From NCBI GenBank assembly GCA_022709425.1, contig JAKLIW010000013.1, positions 183-64,182 on the forward strand: a stretch of 64,000 nucleotides of DNA, read 5' to 3'. The notes under the pieces were generated by a model, which was given only the letters and a program-made list of their open reading frames with translations, searched no databases and had not been told where the DNA came from. Below are positions 5,986 through 64,000 of this stretch, piece by piece; the stretch's first letter is position 1; each line of letters begins with the position of its first letter. Source of the stretch: a bacterium (GTDB taxonomy: Bacteria > UBP6 > UBA1177 > JAKLFG01). Both the position numbers and the translations under genes were made by a program.

Positions 5986-7965
5986 TTATGCGGGATCGAC
6001 GCACTCGTAGTCGAACGATATCTGACCGACGACCGGCGAAACACCGACATTCTTGGAATAGAGACGCACTTCCAGCTCGATGTAGTGTCCCTGCTGGAGC
6101 GTTGCGGGCATGACCTTGGGCGACACGTCGCTGGGCACTTCGACGATGATCTGCCACTGCTCAAGGGCAAGCTGGGCCAGCTGGTCGCTCGTCCGGGCGC
6201 GGATGATGACCCGGGTATCGGCCGGGACATCGGCGTCCCAGTAGATCTTCTGCCAGTCGGTCGACAGCGACGAAGAACAGATCTCGAAGGTATGGCGGAA
6301 CCACCCCTCTTTCGAGGCGAAGTTCTTGAGGTTGTAGCCGATCATGTCGCTGTAGACGTAGGGACCATTCCCCACCGGGATGATCTTCTTTTGCGCCTCG
6401 AGCACGGTCGGGATCATCGTCGAACGATCCACCGGCAGATAGGTCACATAGCCCTGACCGGCGTTACAGCGCGACATACCCCACACATTACCCTTGAAGT
6501 CGATCCCGACGCCGGTCCCTTGGAACGGATGGATCGTTGCGTCGCTCAAAAGATACGGGCCGTGTATCGAGGCGGGATCAGGATAGACCGATGCATCTAT
6601 CATGTAGATGCTCGAATCGACGCCGGCACCCTCCTCGGTGGAAATGGTCCAGATAAAACCCGAATCATCGGCCGCGATGCCGCGGAATCCGTGGGCGGTC
6701 GACACCTGCAGGGAGGTCCAGGTCCCCTGATCAGCGAAGATCGAATCATCGGGGGTATAGCGATGGACGAAGCCGTCGGTGAAGGAGGTGATCCAGATGT
6801 TGTCGTCCTTGTCGATGGCGATACCGTAGAAGCCGCCCGCACCGCCGTAGGCCGGGATATCGGGAGCATAGTGTATCTGTCCGGTCACATCGTTGGTATC
6901 GAACCATGCAAGACCGCCGTTGGTGGGCGTTATCCATTCGGGGATATAGCGGCAGGAGACCCAGTTACGACCATATTTATCCAGCACATAACCGTAAGGA
7001 CGGCAGATCTCGGTGTCGGCACTGGTCATTGAAAAGACCTGCATTATATCGCCGGTATTGCCGTTGAGCCGGTAGGAGAAGGGATCGCCCAAGTGACAAC
7101 CAAGCATCAGATGGCCGGTGTACTCGAAGTTGGCGCCGGTCTCCGGTGTGGCCGCGACACCGCGAATACCGCCGCAGGCGTAGGGGCTCTGGAGATCGGT
7201 CCCGTCGAAGACCCGGGTCCAGACGACGCATTCATCGGTCGAACGGCCATCAACGTCGCGCGGCAGTACGTCGGTCGGTCCGGTCGAGGTCTGGATAATG
7301 CTGTCGCCGTTGCGGTCAACGCAGTATTCGGGATGCCCCGCGATCTTGGTAACCGAACCGTCGAAGCGATTCCCGACGAACATATTACCCGCCAGATCGA
7401 CACTGGTCCGCGATGGATCCGAAGCGGCAGAAAGTCCGACATTATAGCGTCCCACCTCGACCTGCGTGAAGGAGTCTATCTTCGAGATGGTCCCGTCTAT
7501 CGAGTTGGGGACCCAGACATAGCGCAGAAGAGTGTTGACCGTCTCGGAACCGTTGTCGAGTTCCAGTCCACCCTCTTCATTGACCTTCACATTGTCGGCG
7601 TTCGACGAACCTTCATCGTAGCCGTTCTCGGTCCCCGGCCCCATACCGGCGTGCGCCGCATCGCTGTCGACGATCGAGACCGTGTCGCTGTCGGAAAGCA
7701 GTTCGTCCCCCGCCCCGTCGTTTTGCCCGTCACCCGCCTCATCGTTCGATCCATCACCGTTCAAAGCATCCTCGTCGGACGCTATGCCGTCACCGCCCGG
7801 GACATCACTGTCGGCCGTATCGGGCAATGTCACATCGCCGTCGCTTTGCTGATCGGCACCGATATTGTCAAGATCATCACCCTGCGCCGGCTTGTTGTCA
7901 CTGCAGGCTACCATAAGGCACAGAACCGACAGGATACCGCAGTACAACAGAAAGGTTACCTTCAT
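5986..7965 (-). CDS. Lipoprotein with Asp-rich tether and beta-propeller (Vgb/NHL-like) domain
   Basis: Lipobox LMVAC; acidic linker; repeated blades (SRTSVDLAGNMFVGN, YGIAIDKDDNIWIT, RGIAADDSGFIWT, TGVGIDFKGNVWG); strong SD. Confidence 0.75.
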   Translation of the reverse strand: MKVTFLLYCGILSVLCLMVACSDNKPAQGDDLDNIGADQQSDGDVTLPDTADSDVPGGDGIASDEDALNGDGSNDEAGDGQNDGAGDELLSDSDTVSIVDSDAAHAGMGPGTENGYDEGSSNADNVKVNEEGGLELDNGSETVNTLLRYVWVPNSIDGTISKIDSFTQVEVGRYNVGLSAASDPSRTSVDLAGNMFVGNRFDGSVTKIAGHPEYCVDRNGDSIIQTSTGPTDVLPRDVDGRSTDECVVWTRVFDGTDLQSPYACGGIRGVAATPETGANFEYTGHLMLGCHLGDPFSYRLNGNTGDIMQVFSMTSADTEICRPYGYVLDKYGRNWVSCRYIPEWITPTNGGLAWFDTNDVTGQIHYAPDIPAYGGAGGFYGIAIDKDDNIWITSFTDGFVHRYTPDDSIFADQGTWTSLQVSTAHGFRGIAADDSGFIWTISTEEGAGVDSSIYMIDASVYPDPASIHGPYLLSDATIHPFQGTGVGIDFKGNVWGMSRCNAGQGYVTYLPVDRSTMIPTVLEAQKKIIPVGNGPYVYSDMIGYNLKNFASKEGWFRHTFEICSSSLSTDWQKIYWDADVPADTRVIIRARTSDQLAQLALEQWQIIVEVPSDVSPKVMPATLQQGHYIELEVRLYSKNVGVSPVVGQISFDYECVDPA

Positions 7966-7990
7966 CTCCCCCCTCCTCCCAATAAATTAT

Positions 7991-9166
7991 TCAATTCACG
8001 CCAATGCCGCGAACATCGCCCCCGGACGGTATCTGGAGGAGCCGCAGTCCGAAGATCGGCGCGACGGCGACGAGGAACTCGATGAGTTCGCCCTGTATCG
8101 CCTCATATTCCTCCCAGACCGTGGTCGCGGTGAAACAGTAGAGTTGGAGCGGCAATCCCGCGTGGGTCGGCTCGAGCGTCCGGACAAGGATGGTAAGGTC
8201 CTGCCGGATATCGGTGCGACCGCGCAGATAGAGCGCCATGACGCGCCGCAGGATGAGCAGATTGGTCGCCTGTTCGCCCAGCCCTTCGACGGCGCGGGCC
8301 ACCAGTCGGCCCACCACCGGATCGGTCGAAAGCCGTGCGATCTCATCGGTGGTCACGAACCGGACCGACGTCATGTCGAGCGGGACCGAACGGCTGATGC
8401 GCCGTGCGCCGCTTTCCTGCATGCCGCGCCAGTTGGTGAACGATTCCTCGAGGAACTTCTGGGTCGGTATCGAGGTGAAGGTGTTGTTCCAGTTGCGCAC
8501 CTTGAGCGAGTAGAGCGAGATGTCGGCCACCTCGCCGTCGGCGCCGTATTTCTCCATCGCTATCCAGTCGCCTTTGCGGATGGAGTTGTTGAGGCTCATC
8601 TGAAGGCTCGACACGAACCCGAGAATGGCATCCTTGAAAACCAGCATGAAGACCGCCGTCATCGCGCCGATGCCCGACAGGATGATGACGGGCGACTTGC
8701 CCATGAGGATCGCCGCCATGAGAACGAGGCCGACGAGATAGACAATGACCGTCACTATCTGGAAAAAGCCCTTTATCGGTTTGTCCTTCGCGAATTCGGT
8801 CCGTTCATAGACCGCCTGCACCGTGGCGAGGACCCGGGCGATGAACACCACCATGGTAAAGGCGATGAGCGCCAGCGTGAGCCGCCGCACCGCCGTCTCG
8901 AAGCCGGTGAAAAGATAGCTCGCGTTGTGGACCACCAGTATCGGGATGAGGTGAATGAGGGTGTGGAACACCTTCTTCTCGAACAGCAGATCGTCCCACG
9001 AGATGGTGCTTTTCTTTATCACATAGCCGATGGCGCGCAGGATGTAGAAGCGGCCGATGAAGAACAGGATGTAGGCGATGGCGAGCACCAACGCGATGCG
9101 TACCGGTGTTTCAAGGAAGGGATATCCCGCGAAGAGCGAATCGAAGATGTTATGATAAGCGTTCAT
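7991..9166 (-). CDS. MscS-family mechanosensitive channel (YbdG/MscM-like)
   Basis: N-terminal TM helices; LSGIGAMTAVFMLVFKDAILGFV, GDWIAMEKYGADGEV, NWRGMQESGARRISRS, QGELIEFLVAVAPIFGLRLLQ. Confidence 0.92.
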   Translation of the reverse strand: MNAYHNIFDSLFAGYPFLETPVRIALVLAIAYILFFIGRFYILRAIGYVIKKSTISWDDLLFEKKVFHTLIHLIPILVVHNASYLFTGFETAVRRLTLALIAFTMVVFIARVLATVQAVYERTEFAKDKPIKGFFQIVTVIVYLVGLVLMAAILMGKSPVIILSGIGAMTAVFMLVFKDAILGFVSSLQMSLNNSIRKGDWIAMEKYGADGEVADISLYSLKVRNWNNTFTSIPTQKFLEESFTNWRGMQESGARRISRSVPLDMTSVRFVTTDEIARLSTDPVVGRLVARAVEGLGEQATNLLILRRVMALYLRGRTDIRQDLTILVRTLEPTHAGLPLQLYCFTATTVWEEYEAIQGELIEFLVAVAPIFGLRLLQIPSGGDVRGIGVN

Positions 9167-52163: not shown

Positions 52164-52280
52164 TGTTATCTCCGTATGAAAGTGAACGGTCGTGCCGGGG
52201 TGAGTCTAGATTGGTCGAACGGAAAAAGCAATGAAAAGCGGTGGAGGACTAGAACACGCATATATTGAGATGACCGTCGC

Positions 52281-52309
52281 CATAGTATCAGACCGGAAAT
52301 GAAAGTCAA
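52281..52309 (-). repeat. 29-bp direct repeat copy 1, equal to a sigma70 promoter upstream of the mutase operon
   Basis: Minus strand TTGACT-TTCATTTCCGGTCTGA-TACTAT-G, identical to 53464-53492; flanking bases differ. Confidence 0.9.
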
Positions 52310-52356
52310 ACGCTTAGTTGTCGGCGTTCCAGATAGACTTCTTTGCGATGAGGCCC

Positions 52357-52575
52357 TTATAAGCCGAGGCGCTTCCACACCTTCTCGCCCGCGATGACCG
52401 CATCGCCGGGGTCGGCCAACCTTTTCTCGGCTAGATAGATATCTAGATGGTCGAAAAAATAGCGCAACGAATCTTCGACAAGCGCATTGCGCGTCATTTC
52501 CAACTCTTTGGCTACCGATTCGATATGATTGAGCGTTTCGCTTTCAAGCGAAACCACTAACCGCTTGCGTCCCAT
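52357..52575 (-). CDS. Ribbon-helix-helix (CopG/RelB-like) protein with no adjacent toxin
   Basis: RLVVSLESETLNHIESVAKELEMTRNALVEDSL..D.YLAEKRL..EKVWKRLGL. Confidence 0.75.
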   Translation of the reverse strand: MGRKRLVVSLESETLNHIESVAKELEMTRNALVEDSLRYFFDHLDIYLAEKRLADPGDAVIAGEKVWKRLGL

Positions 52576-52578
52576 TCG

Positions 52579-52742
52579 TCAATCCTTCAGTAAAACATCC
52601 TCGTCAGTCGTATCATCATCGACCGTGGCATCGTCGTAGTCGACATAAATGTTACCGTATTTCGGCGTGGCCTCGCCGCAACTTGACGCGACGACCATCC
52701 CCAGCGCCACGACCATCAGCCGATAGAAGTGTGTTTCAACAT
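52579..52742 (-). pseudogene. Frameshifted short lipoprotein paralogue of 52755-53423
   Basis: ATG TTG AAA CAC [AC] TTC TAT CGG. Removing 2 nt gives MLKHFYRLMVVALGMVVASSCGEATPKYGNIYVDYDDATVDDDTTDEDVLLKD* (53 aa); good SD. Confidence 0.75.
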
Positions 52743-52754
52743 CTTTTTCTCCCC

Positions 52755-53423
52755 TCACTCATCCGGCAGCAGGGCATCGTCGTCAGAAGAGACTTCTTCG
52801 AGTTCTATTTTCACATCGATGTTGGTGCAGGTGTAGTAACCGAAGTCGCTTGGATCATAAGTACACTCTAACGGGACACTGACCTCTTTATCCTGATACC
52901 GGCCGTTCGTCGCGCCATCGATGTCCATGACCCCGAGCATCGCCGTGTCTTGGGGAGACAAACCACAGGACTCTTGCTCTTGAATGAAGAAAGTTCCGTC
53001 GCTGCCGCTCAACACCTGAGATGTCGATGAATATTCGCTCAACTGGTAGGTTATCGCTATACCCTCTATCGGCGAACCGCCCACAGCGCTGACCGCACCT
53101 TCGACATGGAACTCGACGGTCGGGCATCCGTACAAGGTATCCTCAAACTCCGGATCATCTCCGTCCTCGTCGGGCACTTCCGACTCACTGTCGAAACCCT
53201 CCGCGTCAACAGCATCCTTATCCGGCGGAGTATCTTCGTCGGGATCAACGGGCACATCGAAATCGTCGTCGGGCGTGATGGTTTCGTTCTCGGCGACATC
53301 CTCATCGACCGTGCCATCATCGAAATCGGTCTGTTCGATGCCGTAGAGCGGCGTGCTGTGGCAACTTGACGCAAGGAAGAAACTCACCGCCACGATCATG
53401 AGCCGGTAAAAGTGCTTGAGCAT
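52755..53423 (-). CDS. Lipoprotein resembling radical-SAM-associated putative lipoproteins (xYGxP + Ig-like domain)
   Basis: Real start MLKHFYRL (the track's 1056-aa ORF is antisense to secA); lipobox ASSC; TPLYG; acidic linker; LYGCPTVEFHVEGAVSAVGGSPIEGIAI. Confidence 0.75.
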   Translation of the reverse strand: MLKHFYRLMIVAVSFFLASSCHSTPLYGIEQTDFDDGTVDEDVAENETITPDDDFDVPVDPDEDTPPDKDAVDAEGFDSESEVPDEDGDDPEFEDTLYGCPTVEFHVEGAVSAVGGSPIEGIAITYQLSEYSSTSQVLSGSDGTFFIQEQESCGLSPQDTAMLGVMDIDGATNGRYQDKEVSVPLECTYDPSDFGYYTCTNIDVKIELEEVSSDDDALLPDE

Positions 53424-53463
53424 GACACCCACCCCATTCGCCGATTGCTTCGAAAACCATCCA

Positions 53464-53492
53464 CATAGTATCAGACCGGAAATGAAAGTCAA
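53464..53492 (-). repeat. 29-bp direct repeat copy 2, promoter of the lipoprotein gene
   Basis: Identical to 52281-52309; about 40 nt upstream of the ATG at 53423. Confidence 0.9.
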
Positions 53493-53573
53493 TCGTTCCT
53501 CCTTTTTACCTCTAAAATTGCTTTTTCCCCATTTTTTGGTTACCTGTGCTGAACATTTTCTTAGGAGTACGTC

Positions 53574-59336: not shown

Positions 59337-61202
59337 ATGCGGGTGAAAAATATTTTGGTGTCCGGGGCTCTGATGCTCCTCATCTTTGTCGCCTGTTCGA
59401 CTGAAAAAAAGCCGGGATTCATCGCCGGAGGCTCCTGCGCCGATGAAAACGCGACCGTCTGCGACAGCGAGAAGATGACCATCCTGAAATGCGTATCGGA
59501 CGGCGCCGCGCTGGTATGGCAACCCTTGATCGATTGTCCCAAAGGCTGTAGCATGGCGACCGGTTCCGCCGAATGTATGTCCGACGGCACTTCCGATAAT
59601 GGGACGGACAAAGACGCCCTTACCCCCGATGCGGCCGACACCGTTGCCGATAAAGATATCGTTACCGACGGAAACATAACCGATGACCTCCTTAACGACA
59701 ACCCCGGCAATGATAACGCCGCCCCCGACGATCTGATCACCGACAACACCGTTCCTGACGACTCTGTTGTCGATGCTCCGGCCACCGATGACACCGTTAC
59801 TGACGATCCGACGATCACCGATGACACCGCCGCCGTAGATGATGCGACTTTCACCGACAGCGACACCGTCGGTGATGACACCGACAGCGGCGCCATTGTC
59901 GATACCGGCCTGTTCAACGATTCCGACATACCGGTCTTCTGTCTTGAACCGTGCGCCGGCATCGCCGACAACTGCCTCTCGCCGATGGATTCTGAGTCGC
60001 CCGCCTCCTGCGACGGACTCGACAACGATTGCGACGGCACCGTGGATGAAGGTTGTCCCTGCCGCACCGGCGCCGTTCAGCCCTGTTTCGCCGGCCCGCC
60101 CAATAAGCGCAACATCGGCGCCTGCACCGACGGCACGCAAACCTGCGAGAATGTCGGCGGCACGCTGAAATGGGGTGCCTGCACCGGCGGCATCGTCCCG
60201 TCGAACGAGGTGTGCGACTTCACCGACAACAACTGCGACGGGTGTGTCGACCGCACCGACTGTTGTGCGCCGCCGATCGACTGCTCCGGAACTATGCCCG
60301 ACGCACAGCCGTTCCAAGACTACGTGGTGGACGGCACCGCCTTCTACAGCGGCGGAGACGCTACGAGTTGGTCATGGGAACTCTCCAAGGGGCCCTGCGA
60401 CATCGTGAACGGCAAGGTCAGCTATACGATGAACGGCAACTTTGTGAGTCAGGCCACCACGACGGCGTCGTCGATGACGCTCAAGTTCTATCTCTCCGGG
60501 CAGTACACCCTCACCATGACGGCCCATACCCCGAGCGGCGACTACAGTTGCAGTTGGGTGATCCATGTGGTCGGTCCGGGACTGCGGGTCGAGATGTGCT
60601 GGGACACCACCACCTCAACCGATGTCGATCTGCACATGGGACGGCTGGTCAATGGTCTCGGCGGTTCAACGACGAGCGATTGGTTCTCCAATAGCAATAC
60701 CAGCGAAGACTGTTACTACGCGAACTGTTCGTCGACCTGGGACTATTCCGTCAACTGGGGCTACTCCAACTCTCCCCTCGCGGCCTGCTCGGGTAACCTT
60801 TATGGCGATTGGAGTTCCGAGGGGGCCTGCCCGAACCCCCGCATCGACATCGACAACTACACCAATATGAACGGGGTGGCCGAGAACCTCAATCTGGACA
60901 ATCCTAACGACGGCGACAAATTCCGTGTTTTCGTCCACTATTATGATGACGGCAAGCCCTTTGGAACAAGGGTCACCTACCCCGTGGTAAATGTCTATTG
61001 CGACGGCATCATGCTGGGTTCCTATGGGGTATCGCCGCAGGTCCAAGGATTCGATAAAAGCGGCGGCGATGACGGCGGAGACGGCTGGAAGGTCGTGGAT
61101 GTCACCACCGATGTCACCGCAGGCATCACCAGTTGCACGCTCGATCCGATCTTGAGCGGCAGTGCCTATGTGGTGGAGACCGGTCCTTTCTCGTGGCCGT
61201 AG
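59337..61202 (+). CDS. Multidomain Cys-rich lipoprotein (CDGxDNDCDG repeats, PKD-like, YfaP/DUF2135-like C-terminus)
   Basis: Lipobox FVAC; D/T tether; CDGLDNDCDGTVDE, CDFTDNNCDGCVD; WDTTTSTDVDLH..DIDN..ENLNL..FRVFVHYY. Confidence 0.8.
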   Translation: MRVKNILVSGALMLLIFVACSTEKKPGFIAGGSCADENATVCDSEKMTILKCVSDGAALVWQPLIDCPKGCSMATGSAECMSDGTSDNGTDKDALTPDAADTVADKDIVTDGNITDDLLNDNPGNDNAAPDDLITDNTVPDDSVVDAPATDDTVTDDPTITDDTAAVDDATFTDSDTVGDDTDSGAIVDTGLFNDSDIPVFCLEPCAGIADNCLSPMDSESPASCDGLDNDCDGTVDEGCPCRTGAVQPCFAGPPNKRNIGACTDGTQTCENVGGTLKWGACTGGIVPSNEVCDFTDNNCDGCVDRTDCCAPPIDCSGTMPDAQPFQDYVVDGTAFYSGGDATSWSWELSKGPCDIVNGKVSYTMNGNFVSQATTTASSMTLKFYLSGQYTLTMTAHTPSGDYSCSWVIHVVGPGLRVEMCWDTTTSTDVDLHMGRLVNGLGGSTTSDWFSNSNTSEDCYYANCSSTWDYSVNWGYSNSPLAACSGNLYGDWSSEGACPNPRIDIDNYTNMNGVAENLNLDNPNDGDKFRVFVHYYDDGKPFGTRVTYPVVNVYCDGIMLGSYGVSPQVQGFDKSGGDDGGDGWKVVDVTTDVTAGITSCTLDPILSGSAYVVETGPFSWP

Positions 61203-61248: not shown

Positions 61249-62457
61249 GTGAGAGAACAAGTTGTCGTTTCGCTCTTTGTGCCGTTCATCATCTTCTTGC
61301 TCGGGTGTGAGAATGGTTCGTCCCAGATCCATACCGACGGCACCGCTGACTCCGACGGCGTCGCCCCGACCGATAGCGATCAAACAACGACCGGCGATGC
61401 CGACGATACTCCAACCAATGACGCCCCGCTCAACGACACTACGACCGACACTGATACCACGGTTGAAAATGATGTCGTCCCTGATCAAGACCAAGATATC
61501 CCCCTCTCCTGCGGAAACGACACCATTGACTCGGGCGAAGTCTGTGACGGCGGGCTGATCTCTTGCACCGTGCTGGATGAGGCGCTTTATAAGGCCGGAA
61601 AGGCCACCTGCAAGACCGATTGTTCGGGCTGGGACACCGCGACCTGCGAAAAGAAGCCGGCCTGCGGGAACGGCGAGATTGAAGAGGGGGAAGTGTGTGA
61701 AGAGAGCAACCTCAAGGATTGCATCCTGATAGACAGCGACCTCTACCGCGGCGGGAAAGCCTACTGTAGCGATGATTGTACCGCGTGGGATACTTCGACC
61801 TGCGATACGGCCGTCGATAGCGATAACCGCGATAACGATACCCCCGATGTCGTGCAACCGGATGCCGACACAGACACCGCGGCATGCGATAATCCGAATG
61901 TCGGCAAGAACTGCAAGACCGATACCGAATGCGGCACCTGCCTTATCTGCGTGAACGCGAAATGCACCGCAGGCTGTCAATCCGATGCCGATTGTATGAA
62001 CTACGCCGGCACGAAATGCAATACGAAACTCAGTCGCTGCGTGAACACGACCGCCTCAAGCGGTGCCTGCAACCAGAGCAACTGCCCGAGCGGCTGCTGC
62101 TATGCGACGAAAGGCTTTCAGTCGGTCAAGTGCCTCATGACGGCGGCGCTCGCAACCTGCGGCATCTGCAAGCAGGGAGAGATCTATATGGACGGCAAAC
62201 AGTGCGTCCCAGCCGCATGCAGTACCGGCGACACCAAATGCCAGACCTACAATACCGCCGCGCCGGATCCCGAGTGTTACGAATGCAAAGCGGGAGAGTT
62301 GGTCTGCTACGATGACCCCGATTGTTCCAGTTCGACACTACGTTTACTGAGCGGATATCCCGTCAATTCGTTCGCCTGTGTCGCGGCAGGCAACTCTTGT
62401 GGCCCCAACGACTCCTGTTGTTCGGGTCAACCCTGCATTCAAGGCTATTGTTATTGA
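61249..62457 (+). CDS. Cys-rich lipoprotein with myxobacterial-type CGxxxxxxGEVC repeats, shared Cys module and knottin-like tail
   Basis: GTG after GGAGG; lipobox LLGC; CGNDTIDSGEVCDG, CGNGEIEEGEVCEE; tail CVAAGNSCGPNDSCCSGQPCIQGYCY. Confidence 0.8.
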   Translation: MREQVVVSLFVPFIIFLLGCENGSSQIHTDGTADSDGVAPTDSDQTTTGDADDTPTNDAPLNDTTTDTDTTVENDVVPDQDQDIPLSCGNDTIDSGEVCDGGLISCTVLDEALYKAGKATCKTDCSGWDTATCEKKPACGNGEIEEGEVCEESNLKDCILIDSDLYRGGKAYCSDDCTAWDTSTCDTAVDSDNRDNDTPDVVQPDADTDTAACDNPNVGKNCKTDTECGTCLICVNAKCTAGCQSDADCMNYAGTKCNTKLSRCVNTTASSGACNQSNCPSGCCYATKGFQSVKCLMTAALATCGICKQGEIYMDGKQCVPAACSTGDTKCQTYNTAAPDPECYECKAGELVCYDDPDCSSSTLRLLSGYPVNSFACVAAGNSCGPNDSCCSGQPCIQGYCY

Positions 62458-62478: not shown

Positions 62479-63108
62479 ATGTACAAAGCTCTCCTCCTTG
62501 CATTCCTGCTTATTTTCGCCATCTCCTGCGAGAACGAGACCCATCTGCGGCTCGTGACCGATCAGGATATCTCCGGCGATACCGATCAGCCGACATCCGA
62601 CGACACGGCCGTCGTACCCGATGACCATGACACGACCGGACCCGACCAGAACGATGCCGCGACCCCGGACGACGATCTGAGCGTTCCCTGCGAACTCGAC
62701 AGCGAATGCGGCGACGGCGAGATATGCGTCCTCGGGAACTGTGCGCCGGGCTGTAAAGCGGACAAGGACTGCGCCGCCTATCCCGGCACCACCTGCAACA
62801 CCGAAACGAACCGCTGTCTCAACGAAACGGCGAACGACGGCGCCTGCAGCGAAAAGAACTGCCCCACCGGCTGCTGCTGGGCAGAACGGGGATTCGTGAC
62901 GCTCAAGTGTCTCATCCCCCCGGCCGTCAAGTACTGCGGCACCTGCGCGCAGGGCGAGGTATACATGGGTCAGAACACCTGTGTGCCGGCCGCCTGCTCG
63001 ACGAAAGATACTCTCTGTCAGACCTATAACTCCTATGATTCCCGCGCCGCCTGTTACGAATGCAAAACAGGCGATCTCCTCTGTTACGACAACCCCGCCT
63101 GCAACTGA
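62479..63108 (+). CDS. Cys-rich lipoprotein paralogue (22-Cys module, no tail)
   Basis: Lipobox AISC; acidic tether; GC..D.DC..Y.GT.CN..RC.N..GAC...NCP.GCC..GF..QGE.YM..CVPAAC..CYECK. Confidence 0.82.
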   Translation: MYKALLLAFLLIFAISCENETHLRLVTDQDISGDTDQPTSDDTAVVPDDHDTTGPDQNDAATPDDDLSVPCELDSECGDGEICVLGNCAPGCKADKDCAAYPGTTCNTETNRCLNETANDGACSEKNCPTGCCWAERGFVTLKCLIPPAVKYCGTCAQGEVYMGQNTCVPAACSTKDTLCQTYNSYDSRAACYECKTGDLLCYDNPACN

Positions 63109-63112
63109 GCCC

Positions 63113-63149
63113 CATGGAACTCATCGACACCGGGAAATGCATCGTCTGC
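63113..63149 (+). repeat. 37-bp direct repeat copy 1 (start of lipoprotein gene)
   Basis: CATGGAACTCATCGACACCGGGAAATGCATCGTCTGC; 36/37 identical to 63939-63975. Confidence 0.92.
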
Positions 63150-63938
63150 AAGGTCTTCTTTCTGACGATCACGGTTCTTTTTCTGTCATCCTGCGAATCG
63201 AACACTCACAAAACAGCGCTCGATAGCGACGCTACCGCCGACCAGACGGAGAACGACCCCGTGATCATACCGGATGACGATTCCGTTGCCGATACCGATG
63301 TTGACGCCTACGACGACGCACCTATTACCGACAACAGCGCGCCCGATGTCGATCTGCCCGACAACTGCAACACGTATAATATCGGCCGGAACTGCCTAGC
63401 TCCCGACGAATGCGGTGCCTGCCTCATTTGTGTCAAGGCAAAGTGCCAAATTGGATGCCTCCGCGATGACGACTGCGCCGCTTATCCGGGCACCCTGTGC
63501 AACCGCAAACTTGCCCGGTGTCTCAATGTCGTGGCCTCGGACGGCGCCTGCAACGAAACGAACTGCCCAGATGGCTGTTGCTACGCAGAGAAGGGCTTCA
63601 GGGAGCTTAGGTGTCTGCAAAGTCCCGAACTGACAAAGTGCAGTGTCTGCGATCAGGGAGAGGTCAACATGGGCGAGGGGTACTGTGTGCCAGCCGCCTG
63701 TTCGACGACAGACACCAAATGTCAGGATTACAACACGTATACCGGGAAAACACCTGCCTGTTATGAATGCAAGGGAAACGAACTGATATGTTACGAGGAT
63801 TGCAATAACCCCGGATGCGACTGCGGAACTACGCTTATGCCGGTGAATCTGAGAAAGTGTGTCGCGGCGGGTGAAACCTGCACCAAAAACGACGAATGTT
63901 GCTCCAACCAACCCTGCATACAAGGATTCTGTTACTGA
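63114..63938 (+). CDS. Cys-rich lipoprotein paralogue with knottin-like tail and thioesterase-derived N-terminus
   Basis: MELIDTGKCIVC-KVFFLTITVLFLSSC; same Cys module; tail CVAAGETCTKNDECCSNQPCIQGFCY. Confidence 0.82.
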   Translation: MELIDTGKCIVCKVFFLTITVLFLSSCESNTHKTALDSDATADQTENDPVIIPDDDSVADTDVDAYDDAPITDNSAPDVDLPDNCNTYNIGRNCLAPDECGACLICVKAKCQIGCLRDDDCAAYPGTLCNRKLARCLNVVASDGACNETNCPDGCCYAEKGFRELRCLQSPELTKCSVCDQGEVNMGEGYCVPAACSTTDTKCQDYNTYTGKTPACYECKGNELICYEDCNNPGCDCGTTLMPVNLRKCVAAGETCTKNDECCSNQPCIQGFCY

Positions 63939-63975
63939 CATGGAACTCATCGACACCGGCAAATGCATCGTCTGC
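63939..63975 (+). repeat. 37-bp direct repeat copy 2 (start of thioesterase gene)
   Basis: CATGGAACTCATCGACACCGGCAAATGCATCGTCTGC. Confidence 0.92.
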
Positions 63976-64000
63976 GGGAAGGATAACCCGCACGGTTTTC
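63940..64000 (+). CDS. PaaI-family (hotdog) thioesterase, 5' fragment running off the window
   Basis: MELIDTGKCIVCGKDNPHGF matches the CxxCGxxNPxG N-terminal motif of PaaI-like thioesterases. Only 20 codons visible. Confidence 0.65.
   Translation, partial: MELIDTGKCIVCGKDNPHGF

Follow-up and report, generated by a model that had tools for sequence, protein, structure and literature searches.

Results

A lipoprotein gene and the thioesterase gene behind it begin alike

We analyzed a 64,000-nucleotide (nt) stretch of the bacterial contig JAKLIW010000013.1, referred to here as the window, near the end of which four co-oriented lipoprotein genes (genes 0 to 3) run up to the 5' end of a thioesterase gene. 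This work concerns the last of the four, gene 3 (63114–63938, plus strand), and the 37-nt direct repeat that brackets it. Gene 3 codes for a chimeric, cysteine-rich lipoprotein of 274 amino acids. Its signal peptide combines a borrowed n-region with an h-region and lipobox of its own, and behind these lie an acidic, disordered linker, a ~160-residue Cys-rich domain, and a ~29-residue C-terminal module. The gene behind it codes for a 132-residue hotdog-fold (4HBT/PaaI-like) thioesterase. Its 5' end occupies positions 63940–64000 on the plus strand before it runs off the window, and the full gene corresponds to window positions 63940–64338 (10827–11225 on L001, the contig to which the window belongs). 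The comparisons described below indicate that gene 3 is an old chimera whose start codon and signal-peptide front were copied from the thioesterase gene.

Repeat and DNA searches of the window returned the sequence CATGGAACTCATCGACACCGG[G/C]AAATGCATCGTCTGC (R) in exactly two copies, R1 (63113–63149) and R2 (63939–63975), both on the plus strand. The copies match at 36 of 37 positions, and the sole mismatch is a synonymous GGG/GGC difference. Among 100 dinucleotide-preserving shuffles of the window, there were no matches to the repeat at three or fewer mismatches. R1 begins 1 nt before the ATG at 63114 and comprises the gene 3 start codon (63114–63116) and codons 2–12, copied from the thioesterase start. 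It encodes MELIDTGKCIVC and continues in frame into K-VFFLTITVLFL-SSC. R2 begins directly after the gene 3 stop codon (63936–63938) and contains the thioesterase gene's native start, with its ATG at 63940, and encodes MELIDTGKCIVC-GKDNPHGF. The original prediction, which was made from the letters of the window, had described direct repeats that bracket the 63114–63938 gene exactly, and our searches bear this out. It had also called for a search for other genes whose first 20–40 nt recur one gene downstream. We looked for such cases within the window and found just one repeat of this kind, in a promoter region at 52273/53456 (see below). A metagenome scan for R recovered five stretches and no additional architecture.

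The contigs that we inspected come from assemblers, and their source samples are anaerobic-digester and wastewater metagenomes. We refer to them by lineage: A (the window, L002, and L010), B (L003–L005 and L032), C (L006–L009 and L035), D (L011–L014), F (L020), and G (L023). A metagenome-assembled genome contig at NCBI, a Joint Genome Institute (JGI) contig, and a Logan contig are identical across 12.9 kb, and all three possibly derive from one sample. A JGI contig from a second sample (L010) carries both repeat copies exactly as they stand in the window, with a gene 3 product that is 99% identical. The same architecture is present in three further diverged lineages from other samples. R1 is identical or differs by 1 nt across the four lineages, and the repeat extends to 38–39 nt in lineage D. 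The two-copy arrangement is real and is not an assembly artifact. An assembly chimera, which the original prediction had named as a risk, does not account for an arrangement that recurs in four diverged lineages and across many samples and independent assemblies.

The thioesterase gene as donor of the shared codons

The product of the downstream gene matches Pfam 4HBT (PF03061) at 41.6 bits, above the gathering cut-off of 20.6, and has a relative in the PDB (2ov9, E=2.9e-10). Source annotations place it in the 'PaaI family', and it scores below both the PaaI equivalog TIGR02286 (29.8 vs 118.9 bits) and TIGR00369 (27.1 vs 36.6 bits). Because the PaaI equivalog score is under the cut-off, we assign this protein at the superfamily level only, as a predicted hotdog-fold, PaaI-like thioesterase. 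The downstream open reading frame is not a further paralogous lipoprotein, an outcome that would have undone the earlier reading.

The N-terminus of the thioesterase, M[EQK]L[ILT]D[TSN]GKCI[VI]CGK[DNK]N[PS][HD]G, is kept in homologs at 57–95% identity. The motif CxxCGxxNPxG is present in 15/15 of the thioesterase homologs inspected, from 95% down to 40% identity. Homologs of the lipoprotein at ≤57% identity all have short n-regions of the MK/MR type, and the closest of these (P0026 and P0027) are encoded by stand-alone genes at an unrelated locus in outgroup genomes. Since the motif is conserved in the thioesterase and the lipoprotein family has ordinary MK/MR starts, these comparisons identify the thioesterase gene as the donor of the 12 codons. 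Conservation among homologs down to 40–57% thus agrees with the earlier claim that these codons are native to the thioesterase and that their motif is not a signal-peptide feature. Every protein that starts with MELIDTGKCIVC plus an h-region is encoded directly upstream of an adjoining thioesterase gene, and the counterexample raised earlier, a homolog with this N-terminus and no thioesterase beside it, did not appear.

In a deeper outgroup (L036, 1–1014), the gene before the thioesterase codes for a different Cys-rich secreted protein and is separated from it by 64 nt. Cys-rich exported proteins may have been paired with this thioesterase before the array arose.

Start codon and signal peptide of gene 3

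The open frame upstream of R1 is just seven codons long in lineage B and contains no start codon, so the borrowed ATG is the only usable start of gene 3. The claim that the thioesterase copy supplies the lipoprotein with its start codon and n-region therefore stands. We considered an upstream in-frame ATG within the Y-E-C-K motif of gene 2 as the real start of gene 3 and rejected it, as it is absent or closed in lineage B. In the interval 63060–63113, lineage A has a +2-frame ATG (GAATGC) from which gene 3 would gain an in-frame, Arg-rich extension of 18 codons; the extension is longer in lineages C and D. This extended start at the YECK ATG is probably unused.

Bacterial lipoprotein signal peptides carry a lipobox, [LVI][ASTVI][GAS]C, after an uncharged h-region, with the Cys located within residues 15–35. 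Gene 3 follows this rule, with L24-S25-S26-C27 placed after VFFLTITVLF and a Cys that is invariant in the family alignment. The gene's own h-region and lipobox, VFFLTITVLFL-SS-C, span 63153–63194 (plus strand; Cys27 codon at 63192–63194) and are conserved in lineages A–D. Based on this conservation and on the ratio of nonsynonymous to synonymous divergence (dN/dS, below), we predict export and lipidation of the protein by way of its chimeric signal peptide.

Codon 13 of gene 3 (63150–63152, plus strand) lies at the junction between the borrowed segment and the lipoprotein body. Lineages C and D have GGG here, which codes for Gly as the thioesterase does; lineage B has AGG (Arg), and lineage A has AAG (Lys). 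This series would be explained by an original junction after TGC GG, followed by G>A changes that put a positive charge beside the h-region.

Age of the fusion

The chimera is present with an identical junction in lineages A, B, C, and D. Its product is 80% identical to that of the window in lineage B and 65% identical in lineage C, and orthologous gene 3 sequences share 73–85% nt identity. All four lineages have the same synteny, in which an AMP-ligase gene, a DUF4160 gene, the lipoprotein array, the chimera, and the thioesterase gene are followed by tpiA and ackA on the opposite strand. Flanking genes (AMP-ligase, tpiA, and ackA) place A, F, and G in one clade and C and D in another; B is placed with A by the thioesterase.

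Synonymous divergence (dS) between the two clades is 0.69–0.84 for gene 3 and 0.56–0.66 for the flanking tpiA, ackA, and AMP-ligase genes. Between lineages C and D, the dS of gene 3 is 0.22, and that of the flanking genes is 0.20–0.29. Gene 3 divergence thus keeps step with that of the flanking genes, and the same junction occurs in both clades. These comparisons indicate that the fusion is at least as old as the split of the two clades (dS ~0.6–0.8). They overturn one element of the original prediction, which took the near-identity of the repeats as a sign of a recent event. The dN/dS of gene 3 between lineages is 0.25–0.35, which indicates purifying selection. The same junction and the same h-region clearly point to a single origin of the chimera.

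Relatives that lack gene 3

A scan of contigs from relatives identified genomes in which gene 3 is missing. In lineage F (L020), a gene 2-type lipoprotein gene is followed directly by the thioesterase gene (...TGCAAC TGA GGCCC ATGGAACTC...), and the junction joins TGAGGCCC to ATGGAACTC. This is the empty site that had been predicted, with the ortholog of the 62479–63108 gene standing directly before the thioesterase. The left junction is the same as the one between gene 2 and R1 in lineage B, and the thioesterase is 95% identical to that of the window in amino acid sequence and 93.7% identical in nt sequence. In lineage G (L023), gene 0 adjoins the thioesterase gene (TAA GGCGCCC ATG). Loose contig ends at 63939/63940 in other runs reveal further strains with gene 0 beside the thioesterase start.

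On flanking-gene distances, L020 and L023 are nested among carriers, and carriers occur in both clades. Because the non-carriers are nested among carriers with vertical-looking divergence, and because the chimera has a single origin, we read the L020 site as a loss. A precise deletion between R1 and R2 is the parsimonious and most likely explanation. Lineage F might alternatively retain a pre-insertion state, or alleles might have been exchanged between lineages. The direction of the event cannot be read from an empty site in a relative alone.

Gene 3 and the recombining lipoprotein array

Gene 3 is preceded by gene 1 (61249–62457, plus strand), which codes for a 402-residue lipoprotein with an extra N-terminal domain, the Cys-rich core of the family, and a C-terminal knot-like module. 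Between them lies gene 2 (62479–63108, plus strand), whose 209-residue lipoprotein product has a native signal peptide (MYKALLLAFLLIFAISC) and the Cys-rich core, is without the C-terminal module, and ends in CYDNPACN*. Genes 1–3 have a common Cys-rich core of ~130 amino acids, with ~60–77% nt identity in blocks. This relationship, which the original prediction left unremarked, marks gene 3 as a paralog of the two genes immediately upstream and no stranger to the locus. Its guanine-plus-cytosine (GC) content of 54% is not foreign. Spacers in the operon measure 0–22 nt, and a scan for promoters and terminators at or between the starts gave no signal above chance. No integrase or transposase Pfam families were found among the called genes within ±10 kb.

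A tree of the core places gene 3 with gene 1 and with stand-alone knot-bearing types, and not with gene 2. The gene 2 type, with orthologs P0039–P0042, forms a separate clade with support of 100/99. This separation led us to reject the idea that gene 3 arose simply by duplication of gene 2. The first mature residues of gene 3, C-ESNTH, resemble those of gene 2, C-ENETH. In lineage B, gene 3 contains a patch identical to gene 1, and identity profiles are mosaic. The final ~150 nt of the lineage C gene 3 match the tail of gene 2 at ~90% identity, against only 50–65% further upstream, and the gene 2-like similarity continues via a TGATG stop-start overlap into R. We interpret the lineage C tract as the product of conversion or unequal exchange in which R served as the downstream anchor. 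The junction TGTTAC TGA C ATG is common to the gene 1–gene 2 boundary (lineages C and D) and the gene 3–thioesterase boundary (A, B, and D). With a single informative base, it looks tentatively like the standard operon junction of the knot-bearing type and not like the arbitrary end of an insert.

Divergence values also differ along the locus. The dS of gene 2 between lineages A and B is 0.93, and that of the thioesterase gene is 0.16. The lipoprotein genes and even the thioesterase gene diverge out of step with the flanks: between lineages C and D, the thioesterase genes (L006 2000–2398 and L011 8001–8399) are 83% identical in nt sequence with a dS of 0.53, compared with 94% for tpiA; tpiA, ackA, and gene 3 together are 91–94% identical with dS values of 0.20–0.29. 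These observations point to a recombination-prone locus. The thioesterase allele was probably replaced by recombination in lineage C or D.

Predicted structure of the gene 3 product

The family of gene 3 has no match in Pfam, NCBIfam, or a PDB sequence search. An AlphaFold model built from a 20-sequence alignment has a mean predicted local distance difference test score (pLDDT) of 70.5. In this model, a helix at residues 10–24 begins within the borrowed segment and is followed by a disordered acidic linker (26–76), a confident Cys-rich domain (~80–240), and a small C-terminal module. A Foldseek comparison of the model with the PDB gave no significant match. A weak superposition was obtained only for the C-terminal module, on a knottin scaffold (7fbp_B, E=3.8), which we regard as a lead only.

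The module has the pattern C-x6-C-x5-CC-x4-C-x4-C, a spacing that recalls the inhibitor-cystine-knot framework. It lies at 63849–63935 in gene 3 (residues ~246–274) and at 62371–62457 in gene 1. This ~29-residue module is found in gene 1, gene 3, and stand-alone paralogs; it is not part of the gene 2 type and has been lost from gene 3 in lineage C. Within lineage A, the gene 3 product of L010 (P0023) differs from that of the window in one local patch of the acidic linker (63330–63350), with ITDNSAPD in place of ITDKRAHD. The patch looks like a small compensated frameshift or a micro-conversion.

Similarity of R1 and R2 over time

R1 has accumulated less change than the sequence that follows it. 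Among lineages A–D, fixed differences between clades are found at 0/36 nt of R1 and at 7/45 nt of codons 13–27, which cover the h-region and lipobox (p=0.016). At the one variable site, lineage A has GGG in R1 and GGC in R2, lineage B has GGC in R1 and GGG in R2, lineage C has GGG in both, and lineage D has GGC in both. R2 of lineage C also carries one G>A change that gives E2K.

R is built of preferred codons throughout. We rejected the idea that R is a universally fixed nucleotide element, as outgroups differ at synonymous sites; the deeper outgroup L036 has nearly the same peptide with many synonymous changes. An Rfam scan of the locus gave no match at R and only a chance-level microRNA match elsewhere. 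RNA folding at both starts revealed no stable or special structure. Most likely, R1 is kept close to R2 by occasional gene conversion against the constrained thioesterase copy, perhaps together with selection on the initiation region. R2 itself probably changes slowly through protein constraint and codon preference. The near-identity of a short repeat is no clock where one copy is constrained and the copies can exchange.

Other variable features of the array and the window

The first lipoprotein gene of the array, gene 0 (59373–61202, plus strand; 6260–8089 in the gene call on L001), codes for 609 amino acids as called, with a conserved N-terminal part and an acidic, D/T-rich linker. It has weak matches to MopE and PKD Pfam families. 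Its orthologs lie at L003 306–1613, L007 2129–3349, L011 3940–5340, L015 6514–7986, and L020 4119–5387. The N-terminal part (..FIAGG.C...CDD..) and the acidic linker are kept in all of them. The C-terminal domain varies by lineage and is MopE/PKD-like in the window, lectin_C-like ('...EKNP') in D and E, and of an '...IEAQ' type in B, C, F, and G. This variation has the appearance of domain swapping in a hypervariable surface-protein locus.

The promoter-region repeat mentioned above brackets a second lipoprotein cassette. A 40-nt direct repeat (90% identical, with 29 nt exact) at 52273–52312 and 53456–53495 flanks a minus-strand lipoprotein gene, a truncated paralog, and a ribbon-helix-helix (RHH) gene, and the cassette is located between a mutase gene and secA. 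The repeat of this 52273–53495 unit contains a sigma70-like promoter and constitutes the 5' control region of the downstream gene, the same repeat-unit-repeat (R-U-R) logic as at R1 and R2.

Discussion

We favor the reading, to which we assign a probability of roughly 70%, that gene 3 is a chimera produced by an old rearrangement in a recombining tandem lipoprotein array that sits upstream of the thioesterase gene in one tightly packed operon. The rearrangement would have joined codons 1–12/13 of the thioesterase gene (-1 to ~+38) to a lipoprotein body with neither a start nor an n-region of its own, leaving the intact thioesterase start downstream. Two routes can be envisaged. In the first, a duplication would have broken within codon 13 of the thioesterase gene on one side and between the n- and h-regions of a lipoprotein signal peptide on the other. 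In the second, two template switches during replication would have used CATG(G/A)AA microhomology at the operon junctions. By either route, later conversion and deletions could have blurred the sister relationship. The borrowed ATG would then initiate the lipoprotein, with MELIDTGKCIVC forming its signal-peptide n-region and the first part of the helix. R1 would afterwards have stayed nearly identical to R2, likely via occasional conversion, while adaptation took place just outside the repeat at codon 13. The repeats would also act as recombination substrates, as the anchor of a conversion tract in one lineage and likely in the precise loss of gene 3 in another. We favor a local rearrangement over an insertion accompanied by a long target duplication because the unit is paralogous to its neighbors, the array recombines, and the empty sites look secondary.

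Several observations weigh against this reading. The n-region of gene 3, MELIDTGKCIVC(K/R/G), is neutral overall (net charge 0) in lineages A and B and carries a net charge of -1 in C and D, which is atypical for the Sec and signal peptidase II (SPII) route. Support for continuing conversion between R1 and R2 is indirect: at the one informative site, the copies agree in C and D, whereas in A and B they disagree in reciprocal fashion. The R segment of the thioesterase gene is poor in synonymous change; among amino acid-invariant codon columns, 1/10 vary within R compared with 53/83 (p=0.0015; clade of lineages A–D, F, and G). This depletion also holds in F and G, which lack R1, and would not be explained by conversion alone. 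A simple tandem duplication of a neighbor predicts that genes 2 and 3 are sisters, and the core tree disagrees. The evidence on a join-point from tandem duplication is divided, as the core tree splits gene 2 from gene 3, the first mature residues are gene 2-like, and conversion within the array can erase the signal. Finally, repeats of >30 bp, an empty site, and the lack of a mobility gene would fit an insertion accompanied by a long target duplication equally well (PMC2853133).

Such an insertion is the mechanism that the original prediction had put forward, here shifted to an earlier date, and we consider it rather unlikely. It would have placed a headless lipoprotein body after codon 12–13 of the thioesterase gene in an L020-like ancestor and duplicated ~38 bp of the target. 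Present non-carriers would either keep the ancestral empty site or have gained it by allelic exchange. The direct repeats that flank the unit exactly, the L020 site with its single copy of R and its identical left junction, and the lack of an integrase or transposase within ±10 kb are all consistent with this scenario. The GGCCC spacer upstream of R1 is similar to the GGCGCCC that precedes the thioesterase gene in L023, and the second lipoprotein cassette in the window is likewise bracketed by 29–40-nt repeats of a 5' control region. Events of this class have been documented for restriction-modification units (PMC2853133). Against an insertion, the supposed insert is paralogous to the adjacent genes and has a GC content that is not foreign. 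An insertion would also require a unit that starts precisely at the h-region, in frame, and whose end coincides with its stop codon. The empty-site genomes are nested among carriers, and the class itself has no established mechanism. The locus shows the repeats of >30 bp, the single-copy relative, and the missing mobility genes of this class; the polarity that it requires, with an ancestral empty site and a newcomer unit, is not supported, given carriers in both clades, the nested position of L020 and L023, and the paralogy of the unit. Site-specific integration of an att or integron-like kind was also considered and is unlikely because there is no recombinase within ±10 kb.

A different explanation for the similarity of R1 and R2 is that R is a nucleotide-level module, with the start and first 12 codons functioning as an initiation or coupling region that is kept by selection on the messenger RNA (mRNA) and not by conversion. 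The synonymous depletion in the thioesterase gene even where R1 is missing speaks in its favor; the pooled proportion of synonymous differences (pS) is 0.08 in R vs 0.39. The first 12 codons of other genes vary in 14/31 columns (p=0.06). Conservation also falls off at codon 13, where four synonymous Gly codons are found among six lineages. Predicted folding of the start regions is slightly weaker than that of shuffled sequences (z +0.7 to +1.1), and spacers of 0–8 nt suggest translational coupling among genes that are Shine-Dalgarno-less and stop-start-coupled. We nonetheless give this explanation little credence. R consists of preferred codons, and the depletion vanishes when outgroup E is added (5/8 vs 46/57). 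In addition, L036 retains the peptide despite many synonymous changes, R has no Rfam match, and the fold z-scores are not significant.

We are similarly doubtful of a more far-reaching reading, in which R would be a portable module of start plus homology arm that allows start-less lipoprotein bodies to be plugged in and dropped by recombination between copies of R. Precise deletion and the formation of circles would remove a body, and DNA uptake would let one re-enter by a Campbell-type or allelic event. If true, it would amount to recombinase-free variation of surface lipoproteins in uncultured digester bacteria, and the 52273–53495 cassette would be another instance. The last explanation, that we are dealing with an assembly chimera or with a decaying gene 3 fragment whose borrowed ATG does not start translation, draws on the reliance on assembler contigs and the unusual charge of the n-region and is already largely ruled out as very improbable by the many independent assemblies, samples, and four diverged lineages that share the architecture and by an intact open reading frame with a dN/dS of 0.25–0.35 and an h-region and lipobox conserved across a dS of ~0.7.

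The locus offers a clean, datable natural example of a bacterial gene that gained its start codon and signal-peptide front from an unrelated cytoplasmic neighbor. It suggests that signal-peptide n-regions tolerate surprising sequences and that compensation can occur directly outside a locked repeat, as in the change from Gly to Arg to Lys at codon 13. It also suggests that the two copies of a duplicated start may remain almost the same over a long period (dS ~0.7) during which the rest of the gene diverges. The setting is a hypervariable lipoprotein locus in an uncultured lineage common in anaerobic digesters, and it reveals no new machinery.

The closest classical parallel to our favored reading is the chimeric gene formed at the join-point of a tandem duplication, a class of bacterial fusions reportedly described by Anderson and Roth. 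In both cases, a breakpoint in the 5' end of one gene fuses its start in frame to the body of another, and the donor remains intact. Gene 3 differs in being natural and long kept, in having a cytoplasmic enzyme as donor and a lipoprotein as recipient, and in using the borrowed peptide within a signal peptide. Moreover, the sister copy expected of a join-point fusion is not evident in the core tree. Elements flanked by attL and attR are also bracketed by direct repeats and regenerate the interrupted host gene. Here, in contrast, there is no recombinase in or near the unit, the unit is a 789-bp gene body, and the repeat lies at the 5' coding end and is used in frame.

Insertion accompanied by a long target duplication is said to have been recognized by Nobusato et al. 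in 2000. Restriction-modification units of this kind are flanked by repeats of >30 bp, have an empty relative, and lack mobility genes (Furuta et al. 2010, PMC2853133). Gene 3 resembles them in its repeat length, its lack of mobility genes, and the single copy in a relative without the unit. Those units are foreign and come from within-species comparisons, whereas gene 3 is a headless paralog that is ancient and uses its repeat in frame, and its empty site is more likely secondary.

The erp genes of Borrelia (OspE/F-related, with an 'upstream homology box') provide a parallel at a spirochete lipoprotein locus, where one module of promoter, leader, and start precedes unrelated bodies and recombination is frequent (PMC10016077). 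As with R, a conserved start module is common to otherwise unrelated gene bodies at a recombining lipoprotein locus. The erp module, however, is distributed among lipoproteins at allelic prophage loci, whereas R is shared between a thioesterase gene and one adjacent chromosomal lipoprotein gene.

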